A stretch of DNA of 64,000 nucleotides from Escherichia coli (GTDB lineage: Bacteria > Pseudomonadota > Gammaproteobacteria > Enterobacterales > Enterobacteriaceae): NCBI RefSeq assembly GCF_024223415.1, contig NZ_CP100500.1. The stretch is one strand, 5' to 3'. A model generated the notes under the pieces. The model did not search any database, had not been told where the DNA came from, and worked only from the letters and a program-made list of their open reading frames with translations. The translations under genes and the position numbers were made by a program. Positions 1,773-22,200 of the stretch are shown here, piece by piece. Numbering within the stretch: the stretch's first letter is position 1; each line of letters begins with the position of its first letter.

Positions 1773-1774
1773 CC

Positions 1775-2551: not shown

Positions 2552-2569
2552 CGGCTGACCCCGTCAGAA

Positions 2570-2639
2570 GGCGGCGTGCCGGGCGTTCCGGTTACGGTTT
2601 TCCGTTCCCCTTACACCCGGCACCCACCGCCTTTTTTTT
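2570..2639 (+). terminator. Candidate hairpin plus T9 tract between gpM-like and gpL-like genes (attenuator or terminator)
   Basis: Imperfect inverted repeat ggcggcgtgccggg / ccggcacccaccgcc followed by ttttttttt at 2632-2639. Confidence 0.25.
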
Positions 2640-2654
2640 CTGAAGGAGCGATTT

Positions 2655-5172: not shown

Positions 5173-5187
5173 CACGCGGAGAATGTT

Positions 5188-5844: not shown

Positions 5845-6422
5845 ACGCGGAATTAATGCGCCTTATCAGCAACATCATCAGAACCGGCGTGATTTTCGAC
5901 GTGAACCCGCAGACCTGGGAGGTCCGGGTGCGCAGTGGCGGACTGGAGACAGGCTGGCTTCGCTGGAGCACCGCGCGGGCGGGCGCGTTCAGTGTCTGGG
6001 TGCCGCCAGCCACCGGTGAACAGGTGGCGTTCGTCTGTATCGGTGGTAATCCCGAAACCGCGATAATCATCGGCAGCCTCTGGAGCGATGATATCCCGGC
6101 ACCGGGCAGCACACTGAAGGAAATCATCATGACAGCACCGGACGGTGCGGTATTCCGCTACGATGCAGACGCCGGTGCACTGGAGGTTAAGGGGATTAAA
6201 ACAGCCAGCATTCAGGCCGACACGCGCATCACCCTGGACACGTCGGAGGTGGTGTGTACCCGCAAACTTATCACCGCCACCCTGGAGGTGCAGAACGGCG
6301 GCGAGATGCGCGGCAGCATATCCCACAGCGGCGGCAGCCTGACATCCAACGGTATCACCGTTCATACGCACACCCACGGTGGCGTCAGGACGGGCCCGGG
6401 CACCACGGGAGGCCCGCAATGA
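5841..6422 (+). CDS. Baseplate assembly/spike protein (P2 gpV-like)
   Basis: 193 aa; Gly-rich C-terminus HTHTHGGVRTGPGTTGGPQ; overlaps W start. Confidence 0.65.
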   Translation: MNAELMRLISNIIRTGVIFDVNPQTWEVRVRSGGLETGWLRWSTARAGAFSVWVPPATGEQVAFVCIGGNPETAIIIGSLWSDDIPAPGSTLKEIIMTAPDGAVFRYDADAGALEVKGIKTASIQADTRITLDTSEVVCTRKLITATLEVQNGGEMRGSISHSGGSLTSNGITVHTHTHGGVRTGPGTTGGPQ

Positions 6423-6769
6423 CCGCTGTTTACAGGGGGATGAACCCGCAGGGAACCGGCACGCTGAGCGACAGCGAACACCTGAAAAACAGCGTGCGGG
6501 ATATCCTGACCACACCGCCAGGCAGCCGGGTGATGCGCCGCGAATACGGCAGCCTGTTACCGGACCTCATCGACGAGCCCATGAACGACACCACGCGTTT
6601 ACAGTGCATGAGCGCCACGGTGACTGCGCTGGCGCGCCATGAACCCCGTATAGCACTGCAGAACGTCGATGTGAACTGGCGGGCTGGCGGACGCGCCGTG
6701 GTGACGTTATCCGGCATCATCACCGAAACCATGCAGAACATCACATTCAGTATCACCCTGAGGGAGTAA
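6419..6769 (+). CDS. Baseplate protein (P2 gpW / gp25-like)
   Basis: ATG 6419 overlapping V stop (ATGA); 116 aa. Confidence 0.65.
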   Translation: MTAVYRGMNPQGTGTLSDSEHLKNSVRDILTTPPGSRVMRREYGSLLPDLIDEPMNDTTRLQCMSATVTALARHEPRIALQNVDVNWRAGGRAVVTLSGIITETMQNITFSITLRE

Positions 6770-6772
6770 ATC

Positions 6773-7669
6773 ATGCCTTCCGTTGACCTGTCACAGTTAC
6801 CGGAACCGGCCATCATCGCGCAGCCGGATTTTGAGTCCATCCTGGCAGACATTAAAACCATGATGGTGAGCTCCTTCCCGGAAGAATACCGCGCCGCCGT
6901 CACCCGTGCCCTTACTCTGGAATCCGAGCCATTGAACATCATTTCCCAGGCCATGGCCTTTCGTGAAATGCTGCTTCGCCAGCGCATCAATGAAGCCGCC
7001 CGCGCCTGCATGCTCAGCCACAGCCGGGGCAGTGACCTGGACAATCTGGCCGCCAACAACAACACCCGCCGCCTGGTCATTCATCCGGCCACTGATACCA
7101 CGGAAGCAGTGATGGAAAGCGACACATCGCTGCGTCTGCGTGCCCAGTCAGCCTGGGACGGCCTGAGTGTGGCCGGACCGTCCGGCGCGTATGAGTATTT
7201 TGCCCGGAGCGCAAGCGGTCTTGTCCGTGATGCGCGCGCCATCAGCCCGTCACCGGCCACAGTCACCGTCTCCATCCTGTCAGCAGACGGTGACGGCACC
7301 GCCGGTGAGGCGTTACTGAACACGGTGCGCACCGCCCTGAATGCCGAGAACGTGCGCCCGGTTGCCGACCGCCTGACTGTGCAGAGTGCTACCATCGTGA
7401 ACTGGGTAATGGAAGCGAAGCTGTATTTTTATCCAGGGCCGGAGTCTGAACCCATGCTTGCGGCCGCTGACGCCGCTTTCCGTGCATGGCTGGCAGACCA
7501 GGGCCGTATCGGTCAGGACGTGGCCCTGTCAGCCATCACTGCAGCGCTGCATGTTCACGGTGTCCAGCGCGTTGAGGTCATAAAACCCACGCAGAACATC
7601 ACCATCAGTGACACTCAGGCAGCCAGATGTACCACATTCAGCATCAGCGAAGGAGGACGCAATGAGTGA
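6773..7669 (+). CDS. Baseplate assembly protein J (P2 gpJ-like)
   Basis: 298-aa ORF following W. Confidence 0.7.
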   Translation: MPSVDLSQLPEPAIIAQPDFESILADIKTMMVSSFPEEYRAAVTRALTLESEPLNIISQAMAFREMLLRQRINEAARACMLSHSRGSDLDNLAANNNTRRLVIHPATDTTEAVMESDTSLRLRAQSAWDGLSVAGPSGAYEYFARSASGLVRDARAISPSPATVTVSILSADGDGTAGEALLNTVRTALNAENVRPVADRLTVQSATIVNWVMEAKLYFYPGPESEPMLAAADAAFRAWLADQGRIGQDVALSAITAALHVHGVQRVEVIKPTQNITISDTQAARCTTFSISEGGRNE

Positions 7670-8225
7670 CAGGAAAAAAACAGACAGCGCACAGCACAGT
7701 ACATCACTGCTTCCACCGTCCGCAGGGCCATTCATGCGCGCCACAGAGGCGACAGGAGTACGCATCAGTACCATACCGGTGGACGCCGACACCCTGTGGT
7801 CGCCGGACCGCTGCCCTGCTCACCTCCTGCCCTACCTTGCATGGGCATGTTCCGTTGACAGCTGGGACCGCAACTGGCCGGAAGAGACCAGGCGACAGGT
7901 GATTCGGGACGCATGGATGATACATCGCCACAAAGGGACCATCAGTGCACTCCGCCGCATCGTTGAACCACTGGGCTACCTCATCCGTGTATCAGAATGG
8001 TGGGAGTTTGACGGCTCGCCCGGGACCTTCACCATTGAGATTGGCACACTTGAAACCGGAGTAAGTGAAGAGCTGCATGAAGAAATGGAGCGTCTGATTG
8101 CCGATGCGCGCCCCGTCAGCCGCCACCTCGTGGGGCTTAGTATCATCCAGGAAATACACGGTGCCATTTACGCCGCTGCCGCAGGTTACGACGGCGACAT
8201 CATCACCATTTACCCGGAAGACTGA
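7662..8225 (+). CDS. Baseplate/tail protein I (P2 gpI-like)
   Basis: ATG 7662 with AGGAGGA upstream, overlaps J stop; 187 aa. Confidence 0.65.
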   Translation: MSDRKKTDSAQHSTSLLPPSAGPFMRATEATGVRISTIPVDADTLWSPDRCPAHLLPYLAWACSVDSWDRNWPEETRRQVIRDAWMIHRHKGTISALRRIVEPLGYLIRVSEWWEFDGSPGTFTIEIGTLETGVSEELHEEMERLIADARPVSRHLVGLSIIQEIHGAIYAAAAGYDGDIITIYPED

Positions 8226-8228
8226 ACC

Positions 8229-10463
8229 ATGAGCACGAGAAAATTCAGAACCCTTATCACCGACATCGGGCTGGCAAAGCTGGCCGCAACAACGGCGCCT
8301 GGCGGTAGACCTGTACGCCTTACGCACATGGCTGTAGGGGACGGCAATGGAGAGCTTCGTCAGCCGCAGAAAAACCAGACATCGCTTTACAATGAGGTTT
8401 GGCGCCAGTCTGTCAACCGCGTCTTCACCGACCCGGAGAACCCGAACCGCCTCATCGCCGAACTGGTCATTCCTCCTGAAACCGGCGGATTCTGGGTGCG
8501 TGAAATTGGTGTGTTTGATGATACAGGTACAATGATTGCAGTAGGAAATACCGCTGAAAGTTACAAGCCCACCAGAGAGGAAGGTTCAGGGCGGGCGCAG
8601 ATATTCCGTGCAGTAATCACCGTCACCTCCGACGCCGTGGTGGAACTGGTCATGGACACAACAACAATTCTGCCGACCACGGACTACATTGATGAGAAAA
8701 TAGCGGAACACGCACGTTCCCGTAACCACCCTGACGCGACACTGACAGAAAAAGGATTCACCCAACTGAGCAGCGCCACAAACAGCACCTCTGAAACACT
8801 GGCCGCCACACCGAAGGCCGTCAAGGCTGCATATGACCTTGCAGCCGGTAAAGCACCCGCCAGCCACACCCACCCGTGGAATCAGATAACAGGTGTGCCA
8901 TCAGCCTCGCTGACGGCAAAAGGCACCGTACAGCTGAGCAGTGCCACAAACAGTGAGTCAGAGACTGAGGCCGCCACCCCCAAAGCGGTTAAAGCCTTAC
9001 ACGATATGGTGACGAGCAAGTATACAGGACAGGATGCAACCACCGGACGCAAAGGCATCGTACAGCTGAGCAGCGCCACAAACAGCAATTCCGAAACACT
9101 GGCGGCCACACCGAAGGCAGTAAGTGATGCACTGAGCATGGCGTTCGTGAAGCCAACAACATCCCTGGGGGAAACAGACCTGAACACTCTGGGGAGTAAG
9201 GAAGACGCGGGAGATTATTACCAGCAGAGTGACTCAGGTGCGAGAACAGACAGAAACTATCCTGTAGAGAAGGCAGGAGAGTTACGCATCCGTGTTGGTG
9301 CATGGGGATTCTGCCAGCATGAATACACGAGCTGGGATCCGCCACGAAAATTTATCAGGACAGTTACCGGAAACTTTAACGGTAACGGCCCATGGTCAGA
9401 GTGGGTGGAGGTGACAAACACAGATGCAACAACTGGACGCAAAGGCATCGTACAGCTGAGCAGCGATACAAACAGCAATTCCGAAACGCTGGCGGCCACA
9501 CCAAGAGCCGTCAAGGCTGCATATGACCTTGCAGCCGGTAAAGCACCCGCCAGCCACACCCACCCGTGGAATCAGATAACAGGTGTGCCATCAGCCTCGC
9601 TGACGGCAAAAGGCACCGTACAGCTGAGCAGTGCCACAAACAGTGAGTCAGAGACTGAGGCCGCCACCCCCAAAGCGGTTAAAGCCTTACACGATATGGT
9701 GACGAGCAAGTATACAGGACAGGATGCAACCACCGGACGCAAAGGCATCGTACAGCTAAGCAGCGCCACAAACAGCAATTCCGAAACGCTGGCGGCCACA
9801 CCAAAAGCTGTTAAAGCTGCGTATGACCTTGCCAACAGCAAAGCCTCGGCAGCCCACACTCATCGCTGGGCTCAGATCACAGACGCCCCTGTTTTTTCGT
9901 CTGTTGCCCGCGTCATCATGGGTAAACAAAGCATAAAAGATATTCTTGATTACCTTGGTTTAGGAGAAGGCTCGACGCTGCCAGTTGGCGTACCCGTTCC
10001 GTGGCCTTCGTCAAGACCACCTGAGGGGTGGTTACAGTGCAACGGTGCCGCATTCACGCGTACAAAATACCCAAAACTGGCGGTGGCCTACCCTGACCTC
10101 AGGCTACCAGATTTGCGCGGGGAATTTATTCGTGGATGGGATGACCTGCGAATGATTGACAGGGGACGCTTATTGTTATCCACACAGGAAGCAACATATA
10201 TTTGTACCGCCATACAGGCGTACCACGGCGTAGCGGGAGGTGCAGATATTCAGGCAGGGATTTCATTTGCATCACATGATAACGACATCATAAACATAAC
10301 CCCTGATCAACCCAGAACCGGTAACGGCATCCTGTACGGCACAAAACCAGTTGACAGATGGGCAATAGCCAGAGCCGGTAAGCTGGTGAGTAATGAAAAA
10401 GACAGATGGATAGCGATCAGACCGCGCAATATCGCTTTTAATTATATTGTGAGGGCAGTTTAA
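8229..10463 (+). CDS. Tail fibre protein (P2 gpH-like) with internal repeats
   Basis: 744 aa; three copies of motif TGRKGIVQLSSATNSNSETLAATPKAVK typical of phage tail-fibre repeats; followed by tail fibre assembly gene. Confidence 0.8.
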   Translation: MSTRKFRTLITDIGLAKLAATTAPGGRPVRLTHMAVGDGNGELRQPQKNQTSLYNEVWRQSVNRVFTDPENPNRLIAELVIPPETGGFWVREIGVFDDTGTMIAVGNTAESYKPTREEGSGRAQIFRAVITVTSDAVVELVMDTTTILPTTDYIDEKIAEHARSRNHPDATLTEKGFTQLSSATNSTSETLAATPKAVKAAYDLAAGKAPASHTHPWNQITGVPSASLTAKGTVQLSSATNSESETEAATPKAVKALHDMVTSKYTGQDATTGRKGIVQLSSATNSNSETLAATPKAVSDALSMAFVKPTTSLGETDLNTLGSKEDAGDYYQQSDSGARTDRNYPVEKAGELRIRVGAWGFCQHEYTSWDPPRKFIRTVTGNFNGNGPWSEWVEVTNTDATTGRKGIVQLSSDTNSNSETLAATPRAVKAAYDLAAGKAPASHTHPWNQITGVPSASLTAKGTVQLSSATNSESETEAATPKAVKALHDMVTSKYTGQDATTGRKGIVQLSSATNSNSETLAATPKAVKAAYDLANSKASAAHTHRWAQITDAPVFSSVARVIMGKQSIKDILDYLGLGEGSTLPVGVPVPWPSSRPPEGWLQCNGAAFTRTKYPKLAVAYPDLRLPDLRGEFIRGWDDLRMIDRGRLLLSTQEATYICTAIQAYHGVAGGADIQAGISFASHDNDIINITPDQPRTGNGILYGTKPVDRWAIARAGKLVSNEKDRWIAIRPRNIAFNYIVRAV
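8817..9067 (+). repeat. Direct repeat copy 1 inside tail fibre gene (identical to 9507-9757)
   Basis: Lines 8821-9060 are base-for-base identical to 9511-9750; offset 690 bp, in frame. Confidence 0.9.
9507..9757 (+). repeat. Direct repeat copy 2 inside tail fibre gene
   Basis: Same as above; first mismatch at about 9758. Confidence 0.9.
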
Positions 10464-11074
10464 TGAGTAACACTGCAGTTCTGGATGAAAACGGTATCGC
10501 CACTTTCGCAGGCGATATCACTGTATATCACTATGATGAGGAAACCCGGGAATACACCTCATCCTCTGTGGAGTATCTGGCCCTGGGGGTGGGTACCCCG
10601 GCACATTCATGCGCCGATGCCCCGCCAGAGGCAATGCCGGGTTACGTGATTTGCCGGACGTCCACGCTGGACGGGTGGGAGTATGTCCCCGATCATCGTG
10701 GAGAGACGGTATACAGCACAGAGAACGGTAATCCGGTCCAGATTACCCAACCAGGTGACTACCCGGAAGGGACAACGACAAAACAGCCTGCCACACCATG
10801 GGATACCTGGAACGGTGAGGCGTGGGTAACCGATACAGAACGGCAGCAAGCCGAAGAGCTGGAGGTTGCCAGACAGCAACGCAAGGAACGGGTGGATCAG
10901 GCGATGAAGTCCATCGACCTCATCAACCTTAAGTTGCGGGCAGGTCGCAGTCTGACACCAGAAGAAACGGCAAAACTGAATGCCGTGCTGGATTATATCG
11001 ACGAGCTGAACGCACTGGATATCAGCACGGAGCCTGAAATAAGCTGGCCGGAAACACCACCAGAAATGGAATGA
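10463..11074 (+). CDS. Tail fibre assembly protein (Tfa/gpG-like)
   Basis: 203 aa immediately after tail fibre gene (ATG overlaps stop). Confidence 0.65.
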   Translation: MSNTAVLDENGIATFAGDITVYHYDEETREYTSSSVEYLALGVGTPAHSCADAPPEAMPGYVICRTSTLDGWEYVPDHRGETVYSTENGNPVQITQPGDYPEGTTTKQPATPWDTWNGEAWVTDTERQQAEELEVARQQRKERVDQAMKSIDLINLKLRAGRSLTPEETAKLNAVLDYIDELNALDISTEPEISWPETPPEME

Positions 11075-11117
11075 GCGGGGAAAAGGAACGGGCATTCATA
11101 AATAATTCATCATGCAG

Positions 11118-11137
11118 GTGCCGCAAGAATGCGGCAC
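11118..11137. terminator. Hairpin between convergent G-like and U-like genes
   Basis: Perfect inverted repeat gtgccgca agaa tgcggcac in the 70-bp gap between convergent genes. Confidence 0.3.
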
Positions 11138-11144
11138 ATTACCT

Positions 11145-11633
11145 TCACATCAGATCATTTACGCCGCTTACTGTGGTATTCCAGACCGAACTTAACTTCC
11201 CTTTCATTCCCGAAAGCATATCAGACACCGGTGACGAGGCCATACTCTCCCGCAAATCCTCATCACAGCGTTCCAGACTGACAGTGAACTCAATTTTTTT
11301 GGCCTTACCGTGGCGGTCAAGTTCGCTTCGCGTTGTGCGGACAGCCGTTATCACATACATGCCGTATATCTGCCCCACACCGTCAATCAGCGGCCATGGG
11401 CGACCAGTGTAAGCCTGCGTCGTTAAAAGGCTGAGGGAAACCTCACCGCCGGTAATTTCGGGATAAAGCACACCGGACAACGTGATCTGGTCGTCACCCG
11501 CCCCGATATACTGCCAGCTGGCCGAACGATTGATGCGTTCATTTTTAACGTGGCGCCAGGTTTTATTATGTTGCAGTTGTTGATGAGGCAGCGTACGCAA
11601 CTCAAAAACAAACATGCCGTAAATCATCATCAT
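11145..11633 (-). CDS. Tail protein U (P2 gpU-like)
   Basis: 162 aa; downstream of tape measure gene on minus strand. Confidence 0.6.
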   Translation of the reverse strand: MMMIYGMFVFELRTLPHQQLQHNKTWRHVKNERINRSASWQYIGAGDDQITLSGVLYPEITGGEVSLSLLTTQAYTGRPWPLIDGVGQIYGMYVITAVRTTRSELDRHGKAKKIEFTVSLERCDEDLRESMASSPVSDMLSGMKGKLSSVWNTTVSGVNDLM

Positions 11634-11644
11634 GCGAGGTACTC

Positions 11645-14600
11645 CTAATCTCTGTCACGGAAACTACCGACTGTCTGGCGGATACGGCGTTCCATTTCCG
11701 CACGGACGGCATCACCCACCATTTTTGCCAGTTCGCGCGGGTTTTGCGTGTGAACATCATGCAGGTGAATATGCAGTTCGCCAGTTAATCCCCATGGTGC
11801 CGCCTCACTCTGGCGCGGTCGGGGCGATGCGGGGGATATGGGCTGGCGCACAGCCTCAACCACCGGACGGGATGTTGCCGCCATCACTGGTGTCATTAGC
11901 GGGGAGAACGTCGGCATGACATCGTGAGTCATAACCGGTTTGATCACCGGCGGAACCACTGGCGTAATATTACCGGACAGTACCGGACGGACGACCGGAG
12001 GAATAACCGGCACATTATTCACGGACACCACCGGCTTCACGACCGGCGACACGTTCGCCGTGGTGGATATCAGCGGCGAAACACTGACAGGCGGTGGCGC
12101 TGGCAGCGGTGGCAACGAAGGCACACTGACCGACGGCACCTGCGGCAGTCTGACAGGTGGCTCACTGACACTACCCGGTAACAGGGAAGCTGCGCGGTTA
12201 AAGCGTTCCTCCTTCCACTCACCACGAACGGCCAGCGCTTCCGGCAGGTTTTTAAAGATAATATCGCCGGGACCAGCGCGTTTTTTCGCCTGTTTCGCCT
12301 CATCCAGCAGACCACCGGTGTTATCGACGATTTTGTTCAGGCGGCGCATAGTGCCGGTATTCTCCCCCGTCAGGGGTGGTTGCCCCCCTTTGGGTTTTTC
12401 GCCGTATTTTTTATCCTCGTCCTTTTTCGGCGGATTAATGACGTTAACATCCGCCAGAAGCATGGCAGCTTTCTCGTTCAGCAACTCCTTCTGTTTTAGT
12501 TCTTCCGCTTTTTTCCGGGCGCGCTCAACCGCTGACGGAATCAGCCCGAGTTTTTCCAGCACCCGGGTTAATGAGTCAATCAGCAGCGTAACCGGACCGG
12601 TCACCAGATTGCTGATAAACTCCCCGACCTTCTGCCCGAACGTCCGCCCGGCTTCCGTGCACTTGTCCAGCTCATCCTTTGTTGTGCTTACCGGCGCGAA
12701 CAAATCCACGAACCACTGCCACACACGCCCGATTGTCTGCCCGACATACTCAAACAATGGTCCCAGTGGTGCCACAGCCTCGCGCAGTGGCGTAAGCCCC
12801 TGCCACAGGCCGGACAAGAACCCGCCCACGACAGCCTTCAGCTGGTCCCAGTGCCGCCAGATAAGCACTGCCGCACCGACCAGTGTCGCCACCACAAGGC
12901 CCACCGGACTTAACAGAAAACCCAGCGCCCCGCCAAGTGCGCCCACCGCACCACTCACCATCCCCCACAGTGCGGGCAGACCTGACAGTCTGAGCGCCAG
13001 TATTCCGATACCGCGCCCCAGTGAAATCAGTGCGCCGCCAGGTGAAGTGAACGCAGCCAGCAGACCACCACGCAGCGCGCCAAGTCCCGCCTGCACACCA
13101 CGAAGCCGCCCCGCAACTACGCCCAGCAGTGCAGCAAACCGTCCGGCACCGGAGGTGATACCGACAAACAGCACGCGCCAGCCACCGATACCGCCCAGCG
13201 GACCACCGAGTACGCCGCGCAGCTGCGTCAGTAACGGCAGCGCACGACCGAGGCCGGATGTGCCGGTCAGCAGGGCAAACCCAAGACGCAGTTTTGCCAG
13301 CGGCCCCATCAACACACCAGTGGCAAGTGACAGCGCCCCCATGGCCGCAACCGCAGCCAGCAGTACACCACCGGCAATCAGCAGTTGTTTTGTCAGTTCA
13401 GGGTGCGCCTGAGCCAGCGCGGTGACTTTCGCAATAACCCGGGTGAACGACTGCGTGACAGAACGCAGCGGCCCGTCAACGAGGTCAGCGATACGGATAC
13501 GCAGTCCTTCCCATGCGCTGTTCAGTGATTTCAGGTCACCGTCCAGGTTATCAACCATAACACGGGCAGTCTGATTAAGTTCCCCGGTGGCCAGTTCAAT
13601 CTCCTGCGTAAGACGGGGAAGATTATTTTCCCCCGCCGCAGTGACAAGATTCATCAGGGAAACATAGGACTCCTGCCCGGCAATAGCCCTGAAAAAGGAG
13701 ACCTGCGCGGCATTACCGTATTTTCGGGTGGCCTGGTACAGCTCATTCAGGATATTTTCCATCCGGCGCATGTTCCCGTAAGCATCCTGCGTCTCCACGC
13801 CAAGCTCTTTCAGTGCCATTGCAGCGGCCTTCGGCGGATCAACCAGACGTGACAGACTGGCACGCAGCGCCGTACCTGCATCACTTCCACGGATCCCCAC
13901 ACTGCCAAGGACACCCGTCATGGCTGCCGCCTGTTCAAGGGACAGGCCAAGTGAAGCTGCAACCGGCCCCGTGTACTTCATGGTTTCACCCAGCGAACGG
14001 AGATCCGTATTGGTTCGTGTGAAGGTGGCGGCCAGCGTGTCACCCACGCGATCCATCTGGTCAGCGGACAGACCAAACTGTGTGAGGATATTCGAACTGA
14101 TATCGGCAGTCTGTCCCAGGTCCATCCCTGCAGCCATTGCCAGATCAAGCACGCCGGGTAGCGCCGCCTGTATGGCCTGTGGTGTGAAGCTGGCCATGGC
14201 AAGGAACGCCTGACCGCTGGCAGCATCACCGGCGGTAAACTGCGTTTCAGAGCCCAGCTTAATGGCCTGTTCGCGCAGCGCCTTAAACTGCGGACTGTTT
14301 TTGTCAATACGGGTCAGCGCCTGGACGCGCGACATCTCCTTACCAAAACTGACCGCCGGTTGCAGGAAACGTCCGGCCGCATAGCCGCCTGCCGCCGCCG
14401 TACCAACCGCCGTAAGTCCGACCGTTTTAAGTTTTCCCGCCGTCTCCTGAGCACGGGAATATTGCTGGCGTGCCTGCGTGACACGTGCCAGCGCCTGCCG
14501 TTCGCGTTCCAGCTGGTCGTTGTATTGCTGTGTTCGCCGTATGGCCTGTTGAATGGTGTTGTCACTGCCGGAAAGCGCAATACCGTGGCGCCGCAGCTCA

Positions 14601-14992
14601 CCACCCAGTTCGCGCATTCGCTGAACTTCACGCGCACGGACCTCATTGAGACGCTCAAGTTTGAGGCTCAAATCGTTCATCAGCTTTTTCTGTTTGTCAG
14701 ACAGCACGGTTCCGGCGCGCTGAATTTGCTGAAGTGCGCTTAACTGGCGTTGCGCCCTGACAATGCCGTTTCCGGCCTTGTTTGCAGCCTCGCGGGCGCG
14801 ATCAAATGAACGGGCGTGGCGTTCCAGGTTTTTGATCGCACCCTGCGTTCTCTGTATGGAGTCGCCAAGCTGGCCCATCATGCGACGGGCGTTTTCGGTG
14901 GGACGGGTCAGCCTGTCAACAGCGCTGAAGGCGACCCGTATATCAAGCGTTTTCATGCTCTGCGTTCCCGCTGCGAAGGGCCGCCCGCTCAC
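11645..14992 (-). CDS. Tail tape measure protein (P2 gpT-like), with Pro/Val-rich C-terminal repeats
   Basis: 1115-aa ORF, long helical Ala/Gly-rich regions; alternative ATG start at 14956. Confidence 0.8.
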   Translation of the reverse strand: MSGRPFAAGTQSMKTLDIRVAFSAVDRLTRPTENARRMMGQLGDSIQRTQGAIKNLERHARSFDRAREAANKAGNGIVRAQRQLSALQQIQRAGTVLSDKQKKLMNDLSLKLERLNEVRAREVQRMRELGGELRRHGIALSGSDNTIQQAIRRTQQYNDQLERERQALARVTQARQQYSRAQETAGKLKTVGLTAVGTAAAGGYAAGRFLQPAVSFGKEMSRVQALTRIDKNSPQFKALREQAIKLGSETQFTAGDAASGQAFLAMASFTPQAIQAALPGVLDLAMAAGMDLGQTADISSNILTQFGLSADQMDRVGDTLAATFTRTNTDLRSLGETMKYTGPVAASLGLSLEQAAAMTGVLGSVGIRGSDAGTALRASLSRLVDPPKAAAMALKELGVETQDAYGNMRRMENILNELYQATRKYGNAAQVSFFRAIAGQESYVSLMNLVTAAGENNLPRLTQEIELATGELNQTARVMVDNLDGDLKSLNSAWEGLRIRIADLVDGPLRSVTQSFTRVIAKVTALAQAHPELTKQLLIAGGVLLAAVAAMGALSLATGVLMGPLAKLRLGFALLTGTSGLGRALPLLTQLRGVLGGPLGGIGGWRVLFVGITSGAGRFAALLGVVAGRLRGVQAGLGALRGGLLAAFTSPGGALISLGRGIGILALRLSGLPALWGMVSGAVGALGGALGFLLSPVGLVVATLVGAAVLIWRHWDQLKAVVGGFLSGLWQGLTPLREAVAPLGPLFEYVGQTIGRVWQWFVDLFAPVSTTKDELDKCTEAGRTFGQKVGEFISNLVTGPVTLLIDSLTRVLEKLGLIPSAVERARKKAEELKQKELLNEKAAMLLADVNVINPPKKDEDKKYGEKPKGGQPPLTGENTGTMRRLNKIVDNTGGLLDEAKQAKKRAGPGDIIFKNLPEALAVRGEWKEERFNRAASLLPGSVSEPPVRLPQVPSVSVPSLPPLPAPPPVSVSPLISTTANVSPVVKPVVSVNNVPVIPPVVRPVLSGNITPVVPPVIKPVMTHDVMPTFSPLMTPVMAATSRPVVEAVRQPISPASPRPRQSEAAPWGLTGELHIHLHDVHTQNPRELAKMVGDAVRAEMERRIRQTVGSFRDRD

Positions 14993-15469
14993 GCCAGGCG
15001 ACCACCTCGCCGGGATCCATCAGGAAGATTTCAGCGGGAGACCAGTTGAAAATAACGGCGATATCCGCCACAAAGTCTTCAATGTGCTCAAAGGGCACGA
15101 CGGTTATCAGCCTGCCGTCGCCGCCCCGCTCTTCCCGCCAGAGTCCTGACCGGCCAAAAAATTAACCGCCACCCCGCACAGCTGAATAAAATCAGCGGAC
15201 CCCATGCGCTTAAGCAGAACCTCGTCCAGTCGCGGCGAAGTGACGCGCGGGAGTAACTCAAACATCGCGTCCGTTTTCATGTTCAGCACGTCAAGCAGTG
15301 ACAGCCCGCGCAGTGAACCGGCCTGCTGTACAGCAGGCGTGATTTCCACATACGTGATTTTTTTGTTACCGAGCACAAGGGGCGTTTTCAGCGTCACGCC
15401 GCGCTCACTGGTCACGTCCGCCGCATCAGCACCGTCAGTAACAGGGGCAACAACCGGATTTTCTTTCAT
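14943..15469 (-). CDS. Tail assembly chaperone E+E' (predicted -1 frameshift product)
   Basis: After slip at T TTT TTG the -1 frame stays open for about 65 codons to TGA near 14943, overlapping tape measure start. Confidence 0.4.
15107..15469 (-). CDS. Tail assembly chaperone E (P2 gpE-like)
   Basis: 120-aa ORF between tube and tape measure genes. Confidence 0.6.
   Translation of the reverse strand: MKENPVVAPVTDGADAADVTSERGVTLKTPLVLGNKKITYVEITPAVQQAGSLRGLSLLDVLNMKTDAMFELLPRVTSPRLDEVLLKRMGSADFIQLCGVAVNFLAGQDSGGKSGAATAG
15155..15161 (-). other. Slippery heptamer T TTT TTG (programmed -1 frameshift site)
   Basis: Plus strand caaaaaa = minus ttttttg, in phase X XXY YYZ with codons N-F-L of chaperone E. 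Confidence 0.5.
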
Positions 15470-15519
15470 GCATAAAACCTCAAATCAGGGGGCGACGCCG
15501 CGCGCCGCCGTGGGAAACA

Positions 15520-16038
15520 TTAACCACCAAGACCAATCGCCGAGCGCACGCGGTCCGGGAAGACGTTTTTGCCGTCCTTGCGTTCGATGTGGTTCAGTAA
15601 ATCAATCTCCAGCACCGGACGGTCGTTAATGCTGAGTTTGTAGTAGGTACTCCTGACCGCATAGGTGTGAGACGTGACCTCACCCTGTTTTGCCTCCCCC
15701 GTATCAATTTCCGTCACGCGGCCGCGAAGCTCAATTTCATACAGGTCGCTCTGCTCTTCATCGTTGTAGTACTCACCGACAAAGCGCAGCAGCGTACCGT
15801 CGATCGTGCCGCCGTACTTAAGGAACAGTTCGCGGGTCGGCCCGCCCATGGTGAAACTCGCATCCAGCGCGCCGTCATCCAGACCAAGGTCGATATTCAC
15901 CGCGCCGGCCATACCACCACCGCGATAGGCTTCCGTTTTACGGGTCAGTTTGGGGGGCGTGAAGCCGGTCACCCTGCCAATCTGGTTCACCCCGTCAGTA
16001 AACAGCGTGAACACCCTGAGATTTTTTGGTACGGCCAT
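15520..16038 (-). CDS. Major tail tube protein (P2 gpFII-like)
   Basis: 172 aa, immediately downstream of sheath gene (TAATG overlap). Confidence 0.8.
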   Translation of the reverse strand: MAVPKNLRVFTLFTDGVNQIGRVTGFTPPKLTRKTEAYRGGGMAGAVNIDLGLDDGALDASFTMGGPTRELFLKYGGTIDGTLLRFVGEYYNDEEQSDLYEIELRGRVTEIDTGEAKQGEVTSHTYAVRSTYYKLSINDRPVLEIDLLNHIERKDGKNVFPDRVRSAIGLGG

Positions 16039-17321
16039 TAAGCACCTCCAAGCGTCGCAAATGCAGGACCAAAGAATTCATCAGTAAACGTCTGGTAAAG
16101 TTCCATATCCTCAAGCGGCGGAACGGGCGTGTACTTGTAGCGGATACGCACGCGTCCCTGACGAAGTTCCGTGGTGCTGTTATCCACCACGTCATACCAG
16201 CACTCCGCACCAATGAGACGTCCTGACGTAACCAGCGCATCCAGTTTTGCGCGAATTGCGCTTAACACGTCTTTCACATTAGCAGGGGTCAGCGGGGCAT
16301 CAATCGTTTCAAACTGCGCTTCCGCAATGGAATCAGCCAGCACCTGAGCGGTTCGCGTGTACACCTCAAAGATATACGCCTTCGTTTCCGGCGTACGGTT
16401 GCCCCAGAAGCGGAAACCGTTACGGCAAATGATGGTAGTGATTTCCTTGTTGTTGAGATTGTTGGCATCGCTGTCTTCGGACTGAAGGGACCAGAACACC
16501 GGGCTGGAAATACCCAGCACATTTGTTACCGGCACGTTGGACAGCGATTTATGCCAGCCCTGTTCGTGGTCAATACGTGCACGTAAACCGCAGGCGTACG
16601 CCGCAGCCGGGAAGACCTCATTAGCGCCGGATTTCGGGTTATAGGCGATGAAGTCAGGCCAGAGCAGCATAAGTTCGCGCTCGTTAAATCTGGCGCGGTA
16701 GCTGATTGCATCAGCGGGCTTCTTGCAGTTGTGACAGCCCGCGTAGACAAATGCGCGAAGTTTTTCTGCAATTACACACAGGGATTTTGTGACAGCTTCA
16801 GTATCCAGTCCGGGAGCTGCGATGATGCGCGGACGGTAACCGATGGCATCATCCTGTTCAGCTATCAGAAGTGCATACATACCGGTATAATTACCGTCGC
16901 CATCCGTGCCACCAATGACATACTGGTCCTGCGTTTTGTGTGGGTATACAGGATGTGCATCTTCAGACTCATCAATACCAAAAAATGCCCTGTCTTCAGG
17001 ATCCAGATGACCGAATGATGTAACTCCTGTATCCGGGGCGCCCTGAGAACTGGTATCAGGAACGCGCACCACAATCACCTTCGTGCTCACCTGGTCGGCG
17101 ACAGCCTTAAGCGATTTGTAAAGCGTCCCCTTTGTGCCGGCCTTACCCAGCACATCACTGACGCGGGTCAGCAGTGTGGGTTTGTTCAGCGGGAACAGAG
17201 TTTCATCCGCGTCATCTGCCGTAGCCACAATACCAATAACACTGGAATCCACATCATTAATGGCGGTGGCAAGGCCGGTACTTTCCCTTACGCGCGCACC
17301 ATGAAAGCGTGTTTCACTCAT
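16038..17321 (-). CDS. Tail sheath protein (P2 gpFI-like)
   Basis: 427 aa from ATG at 17321 (MSETRFHGARV...); track ORF extends further upstream without support. Confidence 0.8.
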   Translation of the reverse strand: MSETRFHGARVRESTGLATAINDVDSSVIGIVATADDADETLFPLNKPTLLTRVSDVLGKAGTKGTLYKSLKAVADQVSTKVIVVRVPDTSSQGAPDTGVTSFGHLDPEDRAFFGIDESEDAHPVYPHKTQDQYVIGGTDGDGNYTGMYALLIAEQDDAIGYRPRIIAAPGLDTEAVTKSLCVIAEKLRAFVYAGCHNCKKPADAISYRARFNERELMLLWPDFIAYNPKSGANEVFPAAAYACGLRARIDHEQGWHKSLSNVPVTNVLGISSPVFWSLQSEDSDANNLNNKEITTIICRNGFRFWGNRTPETKAYIFEVYTRTAQVLADSIAEAQFETIDAPLTPANVKDVLSAIRAKLDALVTSGRLIGAECWYDVVDNSTTELRQGRVRIRYKYTPVPPLEDMELYQTFTDEFFGPAFATLGGA

Positions 17322-17433
17322 ATGTTTCACCCTTGTCTGGCTGGTTGATTTTGCGTAATCATTACCCACACACGCGGTAATCTCACCCCTTTGATGTTGT
17401 CTCCTGACAGCGACAACAAAACAGCCATTCAAC

Positions 17434-17451
17434 GCCGCTGCGGTGCATGAA
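17434..17451 (-). promoter_or_regulatory. TGT-N12-ACA dyad, candidate Ogr-dependent late promoter element for the sheath operon
   Basis: tgtCTCCTGACAGCGaca, centre about 55 nt upstream of a transcript start that would give a roughly 65-nt leader to the sheath ATG. Confidence 0.35.
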
Positions 17452-17482
17452 ACCATTACAGAACGCACCAGGAGAGAACACC

Positions 17483-18574
17483 ATGAAAGAGCTGTCAGTT
17501 ACCGTTCCGTCACCGGATATCGACATCACCATCAACAACAACACACTGGCAAACCTCACAGAGCGACTCATGACGCTGACCCTGACGGATAACCGGGCCT
17601 TTGAGGCAGACCGCGTCACCCTCACCCTTGACGATACGGACGGGCAGTTACAGTTGCCACCACGTGGCGCACGCCTGAGAGTGATGATTGGCTGGCGAGG
17701 AGAATCACTGGTTAACAAGGGCACCTACGTCGTTGATGAGGTTGCGTGGGAAGGACCTCCAGATAAACTGATCATCACCGCCAGCAGCGCAGATTTTCGG
17801 GAAGAGTTCAACGTGAGGCGGGAGGTATCCTGGCACGACGTGACCGTAAAACAGGTTGTGTCAGCCATCGCTCACCGCTACGGCCTGAAGACACAGATAA
17901 GCGAAATCCTCATGGATATCGAAATTGACCACGCTGACCAGACCGAAGAGAGCGATATATCCTTCCTGACCCGCATGGCTGAAATGCTGGGTGCGATTGC
18001 CACCGTAAAAAACGGCAGCCTGTTATTCATTCTGCCGGGTGGCGGAACCGGGCCGGACGGAAGAGCCCTGCCTTCGTTCGCCATTACCCGCAGCAGCGGC
18101 GACAGTCACCGCTTTCGCATTGCTGACCGTGATGCGTATACGGGGGTCCGGGCGCACTGGCTCGATCTGAAGTTCGGGCAAAAGAAAAAAGTGAACGTGA
18201 AGCGACGCAGGGAAGCCGGGAAACAGAAACAGGAGAAGAGCAGCAGCCGGGAGGGTGATTACATGGAAGGCGCGGAAGGGAACGTCTACGTTCTGCGCAG
18301 GACTTACCAGAATGAAGAAACCGCACGACGTGCAGCTGCGGCAAAGTGGCAGGAGTTACAGCGGGGAGCAGCGGCATTCTCCATCACTCTGGCACGGGGT
18401 CGTGCCGACCTGTACCCCGAAATGCACGGCAGGGTAACAGGTTTTAAAAGCGAGGTGGACAATCAGGACTGGATTATTGCCAGGGTGGAGCACATCATAG
18501 ATGAAAGCGGCTTCACCACACAACTGGAGCTGGAAGCGAAAATCCCCGAATGGATAGCAGATTCAGGCGGATAA
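17483..18574 (+). CDS. Tail protein D (P2 gpD-like late control protein)
   Basis: ATG 17483 with GGAGAG upstream; 363 aa. Confidence 0.7.
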   Translation: MKELSVTVPSPDIDITINNNTLANLTERLMTLTLTDNRAFEADRVTLTLDDTDGQLQLPPRGARLRVMIGWRGESLVNKGTYVVDEVAWEGPPDKLIITASSADFREEFNVRREVSWHDVTVKQVVSAIAHRYGLKTQISEILMDIEIDHADQTEESDISFLTRMAEMLGAIATVKNGSLLFILPGGGTGPDGRALPSFAITRSSGDSHRFRIADRDAYTGVRAHWLDLKFGQKKKVNVKRRREAGKQKQEKSSSREGDYMEGAEGNVYVLRRTYQNEETARRAAAAKWQELQRGAAAFSITLARGRADLYPEMHGRVTGFKSEVDNQDWIIARVEHIIDESGFTTQLELEAKIPEWIADSGG

Positions 18575-18617
18575 AATTAAAATGAGCCATCTCCACTCAG
18601 CCAGATAAGGAGAAGCC

Positions 18618-18869
18618 ATGTTCCGTTGTCCCCTATGCGGTGCATCCGCACGTATCCGCACCAGTCGCAATGAAAATGATTCAGGCACAGTTCGCCTGAA
18701 GTACTACCAGTGCAATAACCTCGAATGCGGGATCGGCTTTACCACACTGGAGGGTTTTAACAAATTCACATCAAAACGCGCCCCGTCGCCGCAGGGTACA
18801 GAGCGGATACCGTGGGAAGATTTTCCGGGATCTCACAGGGGGAATACTCAGATTAATCTTGATATTTAA
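18618..18869 (+). CDS. ogr: Ogr/Delta-family zinc-finger late-gene activator
   Basis: 83 aa; CPLC...C(x4)C arrangement MFRCPLCGASARIRTSR...YYQCNNLECG; last gene before prophage junction. Confidence 0.75.
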   Translation: MFRCPLCGASARIRTSRNENDSGTVRLKYYQCNNLECGIGFTTLEGFNKFTSKRAPSPQGTERIPWEDFPGSHRGNTQINLDI

Positions 18870-18980
18870 GAACAATAATCAGGTTGAGAGGACATCATAA
18901 GGCAAGTAGATTAACGGCAGATACTTTCCCGCAACCACGGGCAAGTATTTAATTATCCATGATGAAATATGACCTAAATT

Positions 18981-19014
18981 GTTTTTTGCCCGCCGGAAAG
19001 CGGGCATTTTTTTA
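18981..19014 (+). terminator. Intrinsic terminator, candidate prophage attR core
   Basis: gcccgc cggaaa gcgggc hairpin flanked by T runs on both sides; same element recurs 7 more times downstream. Confidence 0.6.
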
Positions 19015-19227
19015 TTCTTTTGTGGTTATGGGGTCATCAGGAACCACGTGCAGATTATATTTTTGTTTTTTTGGCGTTCCTCCGGCAGCAACGAGTTCAT
19101 CAATAAGACACTGACACGCCTGAACATCCCGGGCATGTCTTAGTTTCACCTTTATTGATTTAACCTTATCCTCACCGGAGGAGAAATGCAGTTCAATCTC
19201 AATATCGTTTCTTCGGAACAATCTCAT
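19012..19227 (-). CDS. Hypothetical small protein (71 aa) in module M
   Basis: ATG at 19227 preceded by AGGGGG; intact only in this copy, truncated or degenerate in the other two M copies. Confidence 0.25.
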   Translation of the reverse strand: MRLFRRNDIEIELHFSSGEDKVKSIKVKLRHARDVQACQCLIDELVAAGGTPKKQKYNLHVVPDDPITTKE

Positions 19228-19398
19228 ACGCCCCCTGAATATATCAGAAATACTAGTATCGAAAAATGAGAAAACAGTTAGACAGGAGAAACATATTAAC
19301 ACAAATCATTTATACCTATAGATGAAATTATAATTTCATTCATGAATATGATAGATAACTATATTGTGAACAAAATGAAAAATGGCTAAATTAAAAAT

Positions 19399-19478
19399 GG
19401 GCATGGAGGAATGCCCGGTTATCAATATAATGTGACGTAGATCATTGTTTTGCCCGCCGGAGAGCGGGCATTTTTTTT
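19399..19478 (+). ncRNA. Candidate small RNA S1
   Basis: Promoter-like TTGTGA(19364)-N17-TAAATT(19387), about 80-nt unit with internal hairpin gggcatggaggaatgccc, ends in intrinsic terminator. Confidence 0.35.
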
Positions 19479-19678
19479 GCGCCTGCCATCGAGGCGCCTT
19501 CCCTGGCGCACACAAAGCAGCCCTGATTTTCCATGAAAACTTCAGGGTTGAGCTGCGGGCACAAAGTGAGTAGATTAGCTACGGGTACCTCCCCCTGACA
19601 ACAGGAAGGGTGTCCATTATCCATGATATACAAACGAAAAGTCTTGTTTTTTGCCCGCCGAAGCGCGGGCATTTTTTT
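19479..19678 (+). ncRNA. Candidate structured RNA U1 (about 200 nt)
   Basis: Bounded by two terminators; internal hairpins gcgcct..aggcgc, ccctga..tcaggg, ccttcc..ggaagg; 4 copies in window. Confidence 0.3.
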
Positions 19679-19723
19679 ATGCATCAGACAAGATACAGCC
19701 CACCCCAACTGACACCTGAAATA

Positions 19724-19752
19724 TTGCCGCAACAAAAAGAAACAGTTAAATT
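19724..19752 (+). promoter_or_regulatory. Sigma70-like promoter for hok1 transcript
   Basis: TTGCCG-N17-TAAATT, about 145 nt upstream of hok1 ATG. Confidence 0.4.
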
Positions 19753-19804
19753 ACGCGCGGGTGCCTTTCGGCTGATGGCCGGAGGGAAAACCTGAAGGCC
19801 GGAT

Positions 19805-20038
19805 GTGGAAAGGCCCCGGAAAACATTTCTGTTTAACCGAGGCCCTAACCGCATTACCTTGACAAGTGAAAGGTTAGCGCCTCTCCGGAAAAGGAGCAAG
19901 TGCTATGTCGCAAAAATCGCTTACGGCCATCACGTTCTGCGTGACGGCAATCCTCATCATCTGGATATTGCACGGTTCGCTGTGCGAAATACGGATGAGC
20001 TTCTGGGGAGCGGAGTTTGCGGCGTTCTTACAATGTAA
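19805..20038 (+). CDS. mok-like overlapping reading frame
   Basis: 77-codon frame overlapping hok1 in a different frame, as in hok/mok loci. Confidence 0.3.
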   Translation: MERPRKTFLFNRGPNRITLTSERLAPLRKRSKCYVAKIAYGHHVLRDGNPHHLDIARFAVRNTDELLGSGVCGVLTM

Positions 20039-20045
20039 GAAGTAA
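19905..20045 (+). CDS. Hok/Gef-family type I toxin (46 aa)
   Basis: MSQKSLTAITFCVTAILIIWILHGSLCEIRMSFWGAEFAAFLQCKK: TM helix plus SLCEI..AAFL.CK signature; AAGGAG 8 nt upstream. Confidence 0.6.
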   Translation: MSQKSLTAITFCVTAILIIWILHGSLCEIRMSFWGAEFAAFLQCKK

Positions 20046-20133
20046 GGAAACCGCGACGGGGGAGCAATCCCCCGTCAATCGGTTGCCAGGGTAAGGTCGA
20101 TAAGGCACCCTATCTCACAGACATGAACAAACA

Positions 20134-20167
20134 AACCCGCAGCATAAAAACTGCGGGTTTTCTTTTT
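20134..20167 (+). terminator. Intrinsic terminator after hok1
   Basis: cccgcag cataaaaa ctgcggg followed by ttttcttttt. Confidence 0.5.
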
Positions 20168-20571
20168 GGTGTCCTCACCGACTTGAAACAGTGATCAGAC
20201 TATAAGACAAAGCCCGCAATGTTGCGGGCTTACTCTACCTCTCGAAAATGTGGTCACTGCGTGGACATACGCTGATACAAATCCTTTATATCAATAAATT
20301 AAATCTTTGTTTTTTTCATCAACAATGATTTAACCTTATCCTCACCGGAGGAGAAATGCAGTTCAATCTCAATATCGTTTCTGTGGAACAGCCTCATAAG
20401 ACAACCTCCTGAATTCATCAGAAACACAGTCAACTGAAAACCAGAAAGCAGACAAACAGTGGACACACATTAATACAAATCATTTATACCTATAGATGAA
20501 ATTGCAGTTTCATCTATAACATGACAGGTAACAATATTGTGAAAAAACTCAAAACTCGTTAGATTAAAGAC

Positions 20572-20651
20572 GGACAGAGCAATGCTACTTTATCAATAAC
20601 ATGTAACCTGTACTTCCTTATTTTGCCCGCCGAAGCACGGGCATTTTTTTT
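20572..20651 (+). ncRNA. Candidate small RNA S2
   Basis: TTGTGA(20537)-N17-TAGATT(20560), terminator at 20625-20651; central region differs from S1. Confidence 0.3.
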
Positions 20652-20849
20652 GCGCCTGCCATCGAGGCGCCTTCCCTGGCGCACACAAAGCAGCCCTGAT
20701 TTTCCATGAAAACTTCAGGGTTGAGCCAAAAGCACAAAGACAGTAGATTAACCACGGGTGCCTTCCACCTGACAACAGGAAGGGTGTCCAGTATCAATGA
20801 CAGACAACTCACATTGCTGTTTTGCCCGCCGGAAAGCGGGCATTTTTTT
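20652..20849 (+). ncRNA. Candidate structured RNA U2
   Basis: Copy of U unit ending in terminator 20821-20849. Confidence 0.3.
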
Positions 20850-21219
20850 ATTCTTTTGTGGTTATTGGGTCATCAGGAACAACATGCAGATTATGCTTTG
20901 ATTTTTTTGGTGTTATTACAGCAGCAACGAGTTTATTAATAAGACACTGACATGCCTGAACATCCCTGACATATCATAATATCACTTTATTTTTTTAGCT
21001 TGTCCTTTCTGGAGCAGAAATATCTCAACATCGTTTCTGTGGAACAACCTCATTTGCCCTTGAATGTATCATAAATATCAGCATCGGAAAACCAACAGCA
21101 ATACAGAAGAAACATGTTAATGCAAATCACTTATACCTATAGATGAAATTACAGTTTTGTTCATAAATATGATAAGTAACTATATTGTGAATAAAATGAA
21201 AACTAGCTAAATTAAACGT

Positions 21220-21300
21220 GGGCATGGTGGAATGCCTCGTAATCAATAATACATGATCCGTACTTCCTTGTTTTGCCCGCCGGAAAGCGGGCATTTTTTT
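21220..21300 (+). ncRNA. Candidate small RNA S3
   Basis: TTGTGA(21185)-N17-TAAATT(21208), hairpin gggcatggtggaatgcc, terminator to 21300. Confidence 0.3.
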
Positions 21301-21497
21301 GGCGGTTACCATCGCCTCACCTTCCTGGTTCACATGAAGCAACCCTGATTTTCCATGAAAACTTCAGGGTTGAGACAAAAGCACAAAGACAGTAGATTAA
21401 CCACGGGTACCTTCCACCTGACAACAGGAAGGCTGTCCAGTATCAATGACAGACAACTCACATTGCTGTTTTGCCCGCCGGAAAGCGGGCTTTTTTT
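21301..21497 (+). ncRNA. Candidate structured RNA U3
   Basis: Copy of U unit, terminator 21469-21497. Confidence 0.3.
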
Positions 21498-21698
21498 GGC
21501 AGTTATCATAGCCGCACCTTCCTGGCACATATGAAGCAACCCTGATTTTCCATGAAAACTTCAGGGTTGAGACAAAAGCACAAAAACAGTAGATTAACCA
21601 CGGGTGCCTGCCACCTGACAACAGGAAGGGTGTCCATTATCCATGATATACAAACGAAAAGTCTTGTCTTTTGCCCGCCAAAGCGCGGGCATTTTTTT
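21498..21698 (+). ncRNA. Candidate structured RNA U4 (hok-associated subtype)
   Basis: Copy of U unit with the same 3' end as U1, terminator 21671-21698. Confidence 0.3.
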
Positions 21699-21909
21699 AT
21701 GCATCAGACAAGATACAGCCCACCCCAACTGACACCTGAAATATTGCCGCAACAAAAAGAAACGGGTGCCTTTCGGCTGATGGCCGGAGGGAAAACCTGA
21801 AGGCCGGATGTGGAAAGGCCCCGGAAAACATCTGTGTTTAACCGAGGCCTGACCCTTCCTACCGTGACAAGTGGAAGGTTAGCGCCTCTTTGTAAAAGGA
21901 GCAAGCGCT

Positions 21910-22050
21910 ATACCGCAAAAAACGATTATTGTTGGCATTTTATGCCTGACAATAACCCTGGTCATCTGGATGGTCCACGATTCGTTATGTGAATTCAGCT
22001 TTGATATCTGGGGAGCGCGTTTTGCGGCGTTCTTGCAGTGTAAACCGTAA
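21910..22050 (+). pseudogene. Hok-family toxin remnant: start codon ATA, promoter -10 deleted
   Basis: Frame encodes PQKTIIVGILCLTITLVIWMVHDSLCEFSFDIWGARFAAFLQCKP after AAGGAG, but first codon is ATA and an in-frame TAG lies 10 codons upstream. Confidence 0.55.
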
Positions 22051-22200
22051 GAAACCGCAGCGGGGGAGAAATTCCCCGCTATCCGGTTGTTGGGGTGGGC
22101 CGATATGGCGCCCTTTCCCTGTAGAGACAAAACAAAAAACCAGATTTGCCCGCCATTGAGAGGGCTTTTTTGTCACCCTCACCAGTGAGGGCATCATCAT

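Follow-up and report, generated by a model that had tools for sequence, protein, structure and literature searches.

In the deposited record of phage P2, the late genes V-W-J-I-H-G, fun(Z), the promoter pF, the F operon FI-FII-E-E'-T-U-D and the activator gene ogr all lie on one strand. A different layout is annotated in the maps of P88, P88_4B11 and Citrobacter phiSM (Xuanwuvirus), where the block from FI to U is inverted. P88 was described as a mitomycin-inducible, plaque-forming phage with a burst size of ~65 and a contractile tail seen by electron microscopy (PMC5285337), and phiSM as a spontaneously released, plaque-forming, functional temperate phage (PMC6456863). Here we analyzed the corresponding block at positions 11145-17482 of a 64,000-nucleotide stretch of the Escherichia coli chromosome (contig NZ_CP100500.1), hereafter the window. 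In this window H and G lie on the plus strand, U-T-E/E'-FII-FI on the minus strand, and D and ogr again on the plus strand. The block is the operon for sheath, tube, chaperone, tape measure and U of a P2-like (Peduoviridae) prophage that looks intact, and its layout is very likely a clade-typical, fixed and functional trait that is old and inherited. Comparison of the gene strands with the P2 record agreed with the first-pass annotation of this DNA in that FI to U is inverted in place.

The order proved to be widespread. The 9-kb stretch 10000-19000 was found colinear, in a single alignment piece and with at least 99% identity, in 26 independent complete E. coli genomes. Searched with a 1-kb probe covered to at least 80%, the head-to-head junction of FI and D turned up in 1139 of the 5426 complete E. 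coli genomes, and the matches lay over annotated sheath and D genes. In a phage collection, a single match spanned the 5' ends of both FI and D in 41 records, and besides the three maps mentioned above the inverted order is annotated in Klebsiella 3LV2017 (Reginaelenavirus), Enterobacter phiT5282H (Novemvirus) and Serratia KSP20. Moreover, we scanned IMG/VR with a D-protein alignment, which yielded 80 loci with a D protein 67-100% identical to that of the window, and classified the strands by tblastn. FI, FII, T and U were opposite to D and ogr in all informative loci with at least 67% D identity (79/79). Escherichia, Citrobacter, Klebsiella, Enterobacter and Serratia hosts share the order, with D identity down to 61-67%.

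In the phage collection, 48 records had a D identity between 60 and 80% and the next ones reached at most 52%. The D protein of the window falls within the upper band; it is 78% identical to its P88 counterpart, and for the Klebsiella, Enterobacter and Serratia phages with the inverted order the identity is 68-74%. Just beneath the gap come Gegavirus ST15-OXA48phi14.1 and Felsduovirus SEN8 (D ~52%), both colinear like P2 (D 46-48%). The co-directional order H-G-FI-FII-E-T-U-D, which the first-pass annotation had ascribed to all known P2 relatives, is therefore a feature of P2, 186, Felsduovirus and Gegavirus and does not extend to the family as a whole; the inverted order is that of Xuanwuvirus, Reginaelenavirus, Novemvirus, KSP20 and many prophages. 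The window departs from this order and has the arrangement of the inverted clade, with U-T-E-FII-FI opposite to H-G and D-ogr and with FI and D head-to-head. Judged by these comparisons, the inversion marks a discrete and widespread enterobacterial clade that has already been classified and to which Xuanwuvirus, Reginaelenavirus and Novemvirus belong. A Klebsiella 'plasmid' in the phage collection, CP052639.1, is a P2-like genome of scrambled gene order, with FII-U co-directional with D and with the sheath gene split into two pseudogene pieces. It was set aside as a probable permuted or misassembled record and not counted as a genuine colinear member of the clade.

The inverted layout is already known from deposited, classified genomes and published maps rather than from a written description. 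Among the papers accessible to the literature search, we found none that explicitly discusses the inversion, and the P88 paper is silent on it. Since it is the normal fixed arrangement of a large, catalogued group of working P2-like phages, the layout has to be considered ordinary. The unusualness first attributed to it did not hold, as both the synteny comparison and the genome search showed the order to be common in a described P2 subgroup. A comparison with P2 alone shows an apparent inversion, which should be read as the normal P88-type layout and not as damage or misassembly. This layout occurs in about a fifth of the complete E. coli genomes, and its significance lies mainly in correct annotation.

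The same data bear on the origin of the arrangement. An assembly error, in which the 6.3-kb block was wrongly oriented at ~11.1 and 17.4 kb, had been suggested as a possible source. However, the 9 kb are colinear with at least 99% identity in the 26 complete genomes, which are independent of each other, as well as in two IMG/VR contigs (L010 and L011), more than 80 diverged relatives have the inverted order, and both junctions carry conserved, functional-looking signals. We rejected this explanation on the grounds of the independent genomes and the clade-wide conservation and regard its probability as negligible. A recent, strain-specific inversion that uncoupled D from the operon and left a defective (cryptic) prophage would fit the separation of D from U relative to P2, as well as the pseudogene flag that the Prokaryotic Genome Annotation Pipeline (PGAP) set on T in one near-identical copy. 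Yet the layout is shared over five host genera at the low D identities given above, phages with the inverted layout form plaques, the tail open reading frames (ORFs) of the window are all open with an intact E/E' slippery site, and D has its own conserved promoter signals. Recent damage is thus very improbable, and the opinion that the arrangement is stable rather than broken was sustained by the intact ORFs and the clade-wide order.

A further explanation would be a programmed invertible segment in the manner of Mu G or P1 C, caught in one of two orientations. In P88-type relatives the U end is indeed adjoined by an invertible tail fibre cassette and the gene of a DNA invertase, and in the colinear Felsduovirus SEN8 an invertase gene lies directly upstream of FI. 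In the window, however, the G/U gap of only 70 bp holds no invertase gene, and the block ends have no inverted repeat in common. All inverted loci (88/88) have the same orientation relative to D/ogr and H/G, and the 26 near-identical E. coli copies are without exception colinear with the window. A Hin/Gin/Cin-type segment was rejected for lack of boundary repeats and of an adjacent invertase and because of the single orientation in 88 loci and 26 genomes; we consider it extremely improbable. One breakpoint of the ancient inversion adjoins the invertase and its target cassette, the invertase being situated directly downstream of U in P88-type phages and directly upstream of FI in SEN8. This position gives a hint, although a speculative one, that the inversion arose by aberrant invertase action. 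The other breakpoint lies between U and D, which overlap in P2. In the P88-type records L001, L002 and L007, the alternative tail fibre cassette and the invertase are found at 5934-8082, 6168-8079 and 1741-3652, respectively.

The inverted operon and D are separated by a spacer of 161 bp with a dyad mid-way. The dyad TGT-N12-ACA at 17398-17415 extends to a perfect GTTGT-N12-ACAAC at 17396-17417, which is the sole copy in window positions 1-19000 compared to 0.007 expected from shuffles. The bare six-base pattern was not enriched in the window (10 found versus 18.6 expected) and was dismissed as uninformative; only the extended dyad and its conserved position carry weight. The dyad had been noticed in the first-pass annotation and is indeed present, in its extended form even perfect, but the distance of about 110 bp from the sheath ATG was not confirmed. 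Its centre is located 85 nt and its far edge ~96 nt upstream of the FI ATG at 17321, and the corresponding distance at P2 pF is 83 nt. To follow the dyad through the clade we took the FI/D spacer from 88 loci, which gave 78 distinct sequences and 72 distinct versions of the spacer proper. A GTTGT-N12-ACAAC-like dyad occurred in all 72 versions, with an invariant ACAAC arm and GTTGT, GTTCT or GGTCT as the other arm. While the 12 nt between the arms vary freely, the position of the dyad is conserved: measured from its centre, the FI ATG is 81.5-88.5 nt away and the D ATG 67.5-76.5 nt, the latter in 71 of the 72 versions. In the remaining version the distance of 39.5 nt goes back to the D start codon that the script had chosen. 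In the full prophage copy of strain TUM1886, exactly two perfect dyads exist in 29.5 kb, one in the P/O and one in the FI/D divergent spacer. Late promoters of P2-like phages that depend on Ogr/Delta carry a TGT-N12-ACA dyad centred near -55; from its P2-like distance to the FI ATG, the element in the window is very probably the site through which Ogr acts on the FI promoter.

In the prophage part of the window, no dyad scoring at least 9/10 was found outside the FI/D spacer. Upstream of the baseplate gene V (5173-5900), where S and V overlap at 5841-5844, there is no pV-type Ogr dyad. Therefore, V-W-J-I-H-G may be transcribed from the O promoter instead of having a pV of their own as in P2.

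The FI/D spacer also contains two conserved blocks on either side of the dyad. On the FI side, at a distance of 44-49 nt from the centre of the dyad, lies a hexamer G/A-A-N-N-A-T whose A2, A5 and T6 are each conserved in 71 of 78 sequences, and this geometry matches that of P2 pF and pP. In the window it corresponds to the predicted -10 element AATGAT of P(FI) at 17358-17363 on the minus strand, with a predicted start near 17351. On the D side, anchored on the dyad, a TG at +41/42 (73/78) is followed one base later by R-A-Y-C-A-T at +44 to +49, in which A2 is invariant (78/78) and T6 nearly so (73/78). The lineage of the window is shifted here by 1 nt, with TG at 17448-17449 and AACCAT at 17451-17456. 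Together they form the predicted extended -10 element TG-A-AACCAT of P(D) (17448-17456, plus strand), which would serve D and ogr from a start near 17463. Both blocks have the signature of -10 elements placed symmetrically about a single activator site, the one on the D side with a TG extension. A precedent is the P2 record, which lists one 'activator binding site; pO, pP promoters', the P and O starts lying at 56 and 55 nt on opposite sides of its centre. From conservation and by analogy, we lean towards a single Ogr site that serves P(FI) as well as P(D). The expectation that D, cut off from its operon, would lack a promoter was not supported; the conserved extended -10 element at a fixed distance from the FI dyad, together with the P2 pP/pO precedent, suggests that D has one.

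We propose that the dyad at 17396-17417 binds Ogr and activates two divergent late promoters from about -56. The leftward promoter would read FI-FII-E/E'-T-U and end at or near a hairpin at 11118-11137, which the H and G transcript would reach from the opposite side. The rightward promoter would read D and ogr and end at a hairpin followed by T7 at 18987-19013 (plus strand). The latter was called by the terminator scan and may be where the D-ogr transcript stops; in the P2 record, the terminator assigned to ogr and the F operon has the equivalent position. This hairpin also forms the terminator of the first of several small-RNA-like repeat units (repeat family D2).

Some observations weigh against this interpretation. 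In the P88 lineage, the dyad is imperfect in its left arm (GTTCT), the T gene of the TUM1886 copy carries the pseudogene flag mentioned above, and the hairpin at 11118-11137 has no T-run on either strand and was not called by the terminator scan, which makes its terminator activity uncertain. If transcription starts 56 nt from the dyad centre, the D leader would measure ~12-14 nt in most relatives, which is short but feasible. In addition, AACCAT and AATGAT are weak compared to TATAAT, as expected for activator-dependent promoters. The short leader and the weak hexamer on the D side would also suit an alternative in which the inversion is clade-typical but D and ogr are driven by a separate constitutive or early promoter, or only by ogr-type signals, the TGnRAYCAT block having another role; the ogr gene of P2 has its own promoter. 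We consider this unlikely. In 73-78 of the 78 variants, the TG and the hexamer keep a constant distance from the dyad while the surroundings drift, the geometry of the D side mirrors that of the FI side, P2 uses one site for pP and pO, and D is a late structural gene that needs late expression.

Under the shared-site model, the inversion may have been tolerated or perhaps even enabled, since a symmetric Ogr dyad can act both ways and one site would drive FI-U as well as the new D-ogr unit. Owing to its dyad form, the Ogr site would have come to D as a usable activator site through the inversion. We consider this reading about as likely as not. If true, the shared dyad would keep ogr under its own positive control, and the FI/D case would illustrate that an operon inversion can be absorbed without loss of late control of D. 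From the conserved, symmetric spacer, a second bidirectional promoter under Ogr control, built like P2 pP/pO, is predicted. We found no description or test of a bidirectional P(FI)/P(D) promoter in the literature.

At the other end of the block, the convergent genes G and U are separated by the hairpin at 11118-11137, which has a perfect 8-bp stem (GTGCCGCA/TGCGGCAC) and a 4-nt loop and lies 43 nt past the G stop and 7 nt past the U stop. This stem-loop had been described in the first-pass annotation as the point on which G and U converge, and it was found again where relatives carry terminators. In the relatives, a GC-rich hairpin almost always follows the U stop within 0-70 nt. Its sequence is lineage-specific, often with A/T tracts on both sides, and these hairpins have the form expected of two-way intrinsic terminators. 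The FI-U transcript, and perhaps the H-G transcript too, is likely to end at the hairpin of the window.

Gene identities were derived from PHROGs, NCBIfam, BLASTP against P2 and P88 proteins, and the PGAP annotation of the TUM1886 prophage, which is 99.7% identical. Homologues of H, FI, FII, E/E', T, U, D and Ogr, the late gene set of P2, were found with 32-63% identity. BLASTP identities to P2 were 43% for FI, 40% for FII, 36% for E, 32% for T, 50% for U, 46% for D and 42% for Ogr (all E-values at most 1e-14), and the tail proteins were 59-80% identical to their P88 counterparts. In NCBIfam, the tube (TIGR01611) and the tape measure domain scored above cutoff; U, E, FI and the gene in the G position had no match, and D and Ogr had sub-cutoff matches only. 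As NCBIfam coverage is sparse, the identities rest on PHROGs, the P2 and P88 comparisons and the PGAP names. Rfam at the gathering threshold returned nothing in the prophage.

The tail fibre gene H (8229-10463, plus strand) matched PHROG tail fibre families with an E-value of 1e-195 and P2 H with 63% identity over the N-terminal 260 amino acids; it is the penultimate gene of the rightward late transcription unit. The tail fibre assembly gene in the G position follows at 10463-11074 (plus strand; phrog_105, E-value 2e-87; 'tail fiber assembly protein' in PGAP). Its product had no BLASTP match to P2 or P88 G, and by its family matches it is a member of a tail fibre assembly (Tfa) family other than that of P2 and P88 G. 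A plus-strand ORF of 113 amino acids at 11071-11412, antisense to U, had no family match and was treated as spurious.

The tail gene U (11145-11633, minus strand), the final gene of the inverted operon, matched phrog_76 (E-value 3e-71) with 80% identity to P88 U. The tape measure gene T occupies 11645-14956 on the minus strand (phrog_28; TIGR01760 with 254 bits versus a cutoff of 28.8; 59% identity to P88 T). According to the reading of the sequence and to PGAP its true start is the ATG at 14956, while the mechanical ORF spans 11645-14992. With 1103 amino acids, T is longer than its homologues in P88 (935) and P2 (815). In the window T is an uninterrupted ORF; in the TUM1886 copy (L006, 22762-24957) PGAP flags an incomplete pseudogene. 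The tail assembly chaperone gene E (15107-15469, minus strand; phrog_103) has a slippery site TTTTTTG (T6G) at ~15155-15161. Its -1 frameshift extension E' (14943-15098, minus strand) is formed by the frame-0 continuation, a GpE-family extension, and PGAP names a 'GpE family phage tail protein' at the equivalent position.

FII, the major tail tube gene (15520-16038, minus strand), was identified by the TIGR01611 equivalog with 118 bits versus a cutoff of 102.75; the PHROG label 'head closure' is library wording. The tail sheath gene FI (16038-17321, minus strand; phrog_23, E-value 5e-120; 78% identity to P88 FI) starts at the ATG at 17321 behind the Shine-Dalgarno sequence AAGGGTGA. The start-codon column is aligned in all relatives and PGAP agrees. 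The mechanical start at GTG 17468, which would overlap the D promoter region, was discarded as not real. FI comprises 427 amino acids and has ~30 additional residues compared to the 394-396 amino acids in P88 and P2. D, the late control and baseplate hub gene (17483-18574, plus strand; phrog_52, E-value 2e-148), starts at the ATG at 17483 behind the Shine-Dalgarno sequence AGGAGA at 17470, again in agreement with PGAP; the mechanical ORF spans 17447-18574. The Ogr/Delta zinc-finger late-gene activator gene ogr (18618-18869, plus strand; phrog_603) matched P2 Ogr with an E-value of 7e-15 and is named 'ogr/Delta-like zinc finger family protein' by PGAP.

Positions 1 to ~19,000 of the window comprise the right-hand portion of the prophage, the left portion being off-window; intactness was therefore judged from the TUM1886 copy. 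The insertion site adjoins serS, and the flank at 22.6-30.3 kb with serS-rarA-lolA-ftsK was matched in 5425 of the 5426 complete E. coli genomes. This prophage lineage itself is present in 26 of the 5426 genomes and in the two IMG/VR contigs. Compared with isolated phages, only 15% of the 9-kb query (10000-19000) aligned by megablast, with ~78% identity to P88-type phages. The ICTV sets the genus boundary at ~70% nucleotide identity over the genome. By nucleotide identity to P88 the prophage falls outside Xuanwuvirus, a result that is no more than indicative since only part of the prophage lies in the window. Because so little of the 9 kb aligns at the DNA level, the prophage is probably a separate genus-level lineage inside the inverted clade.

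Further features were observed in the window. The region between ogr and serS (18880-22200) is AT-rich (42-44% GC), and a hairpin with a T-run, TTTGCCCGCCGGAAAGCGGGCATTTTTTT, occurs there nine times. Each of five paralogous units consists of a near-consensus promoter (TTGAGN, 17 nt, TAGATT), ~95 nt and one of these hairpin terminators; the array looks like a set of small-RNA genes and belongs to no Rfam family. Two hok/sok-like loci are located at 19759-19918 and 21764-21921 (Rfam sok, E-value ~1e-8, below the gathering score). The hairpin array was found only in this prophage lineage (the window, L006, L010 and L011) and not in P88-type loci. In the 103-bp gap between the terminase gene M and the head-completion gene L (2552-2654), a long GC-rich inverted repeat is followed by T8 (GGCGGCGTGCCGGGCG…CACCCGGCACCCACCGCCTTTTTTTT), a terminator-like signal amid what is a single O operon in P2. 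Outside the prophage, Rfam reported an IS102 RNA match with 88 bits on the minus strand at 49751-49947. Beside it, a GC-rich stretch (58-63%) at 44000-49000 is distinct from the flanking host DNA and is probably an insertion sequence element or another island.

Among the named systems, P88, P88_4B11 and phiSM are the most similar to the window. They have the same gene order and strands and an FI/D spacer of 157-158 bp, in which the dyad and both -10 blocks lie at the offsets seen in the window. Unlike the window with its 70-bp gap and hairpin, however, P88-type phages carry the invertible tail fibre cassette and the DNA invertase between G and U. P88 also differs in the left arm of the dyad (GTTCT instead of GTTGT) and in its shorter T and FI proteins (935 and 394 amino acids versus 1103 and 427). 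The same inverted FI-U block and a divergent FI/D spacer with a central dyad occur in 3LV2017, phiT5282H and KSP20. These are more distant (D 68-74%) and differ in hosts, tail fibre modules and the sequences of the hairpin after U.

The P2 F operon contains homologous genes in the same internal order, with an Ogr dyad ~83-85 nt upstream of the FI ATG, an annotated E/E' frameshift, and ogr downstream of D followed by a terminator. In P2, however, the operon is co-directional with H-G and includes D, with U and D overlapping, whereas in the window FI-U runs the other way and D-ogr is a divergent unit of its own. The shared-site design is documented in P2 for pP/pO only, and its use at FI/D in the P88-type clade is suggested by conservation. 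At pP/pO, one dyad lies mid-way between divergent late units with starts ~55-56 nt to either side. In the prophage lineage of the window the P/O spacer, too, holds a perfect GTTGT-N12-ACAAC, and we propose that the FI/D spacer is built in the same way.

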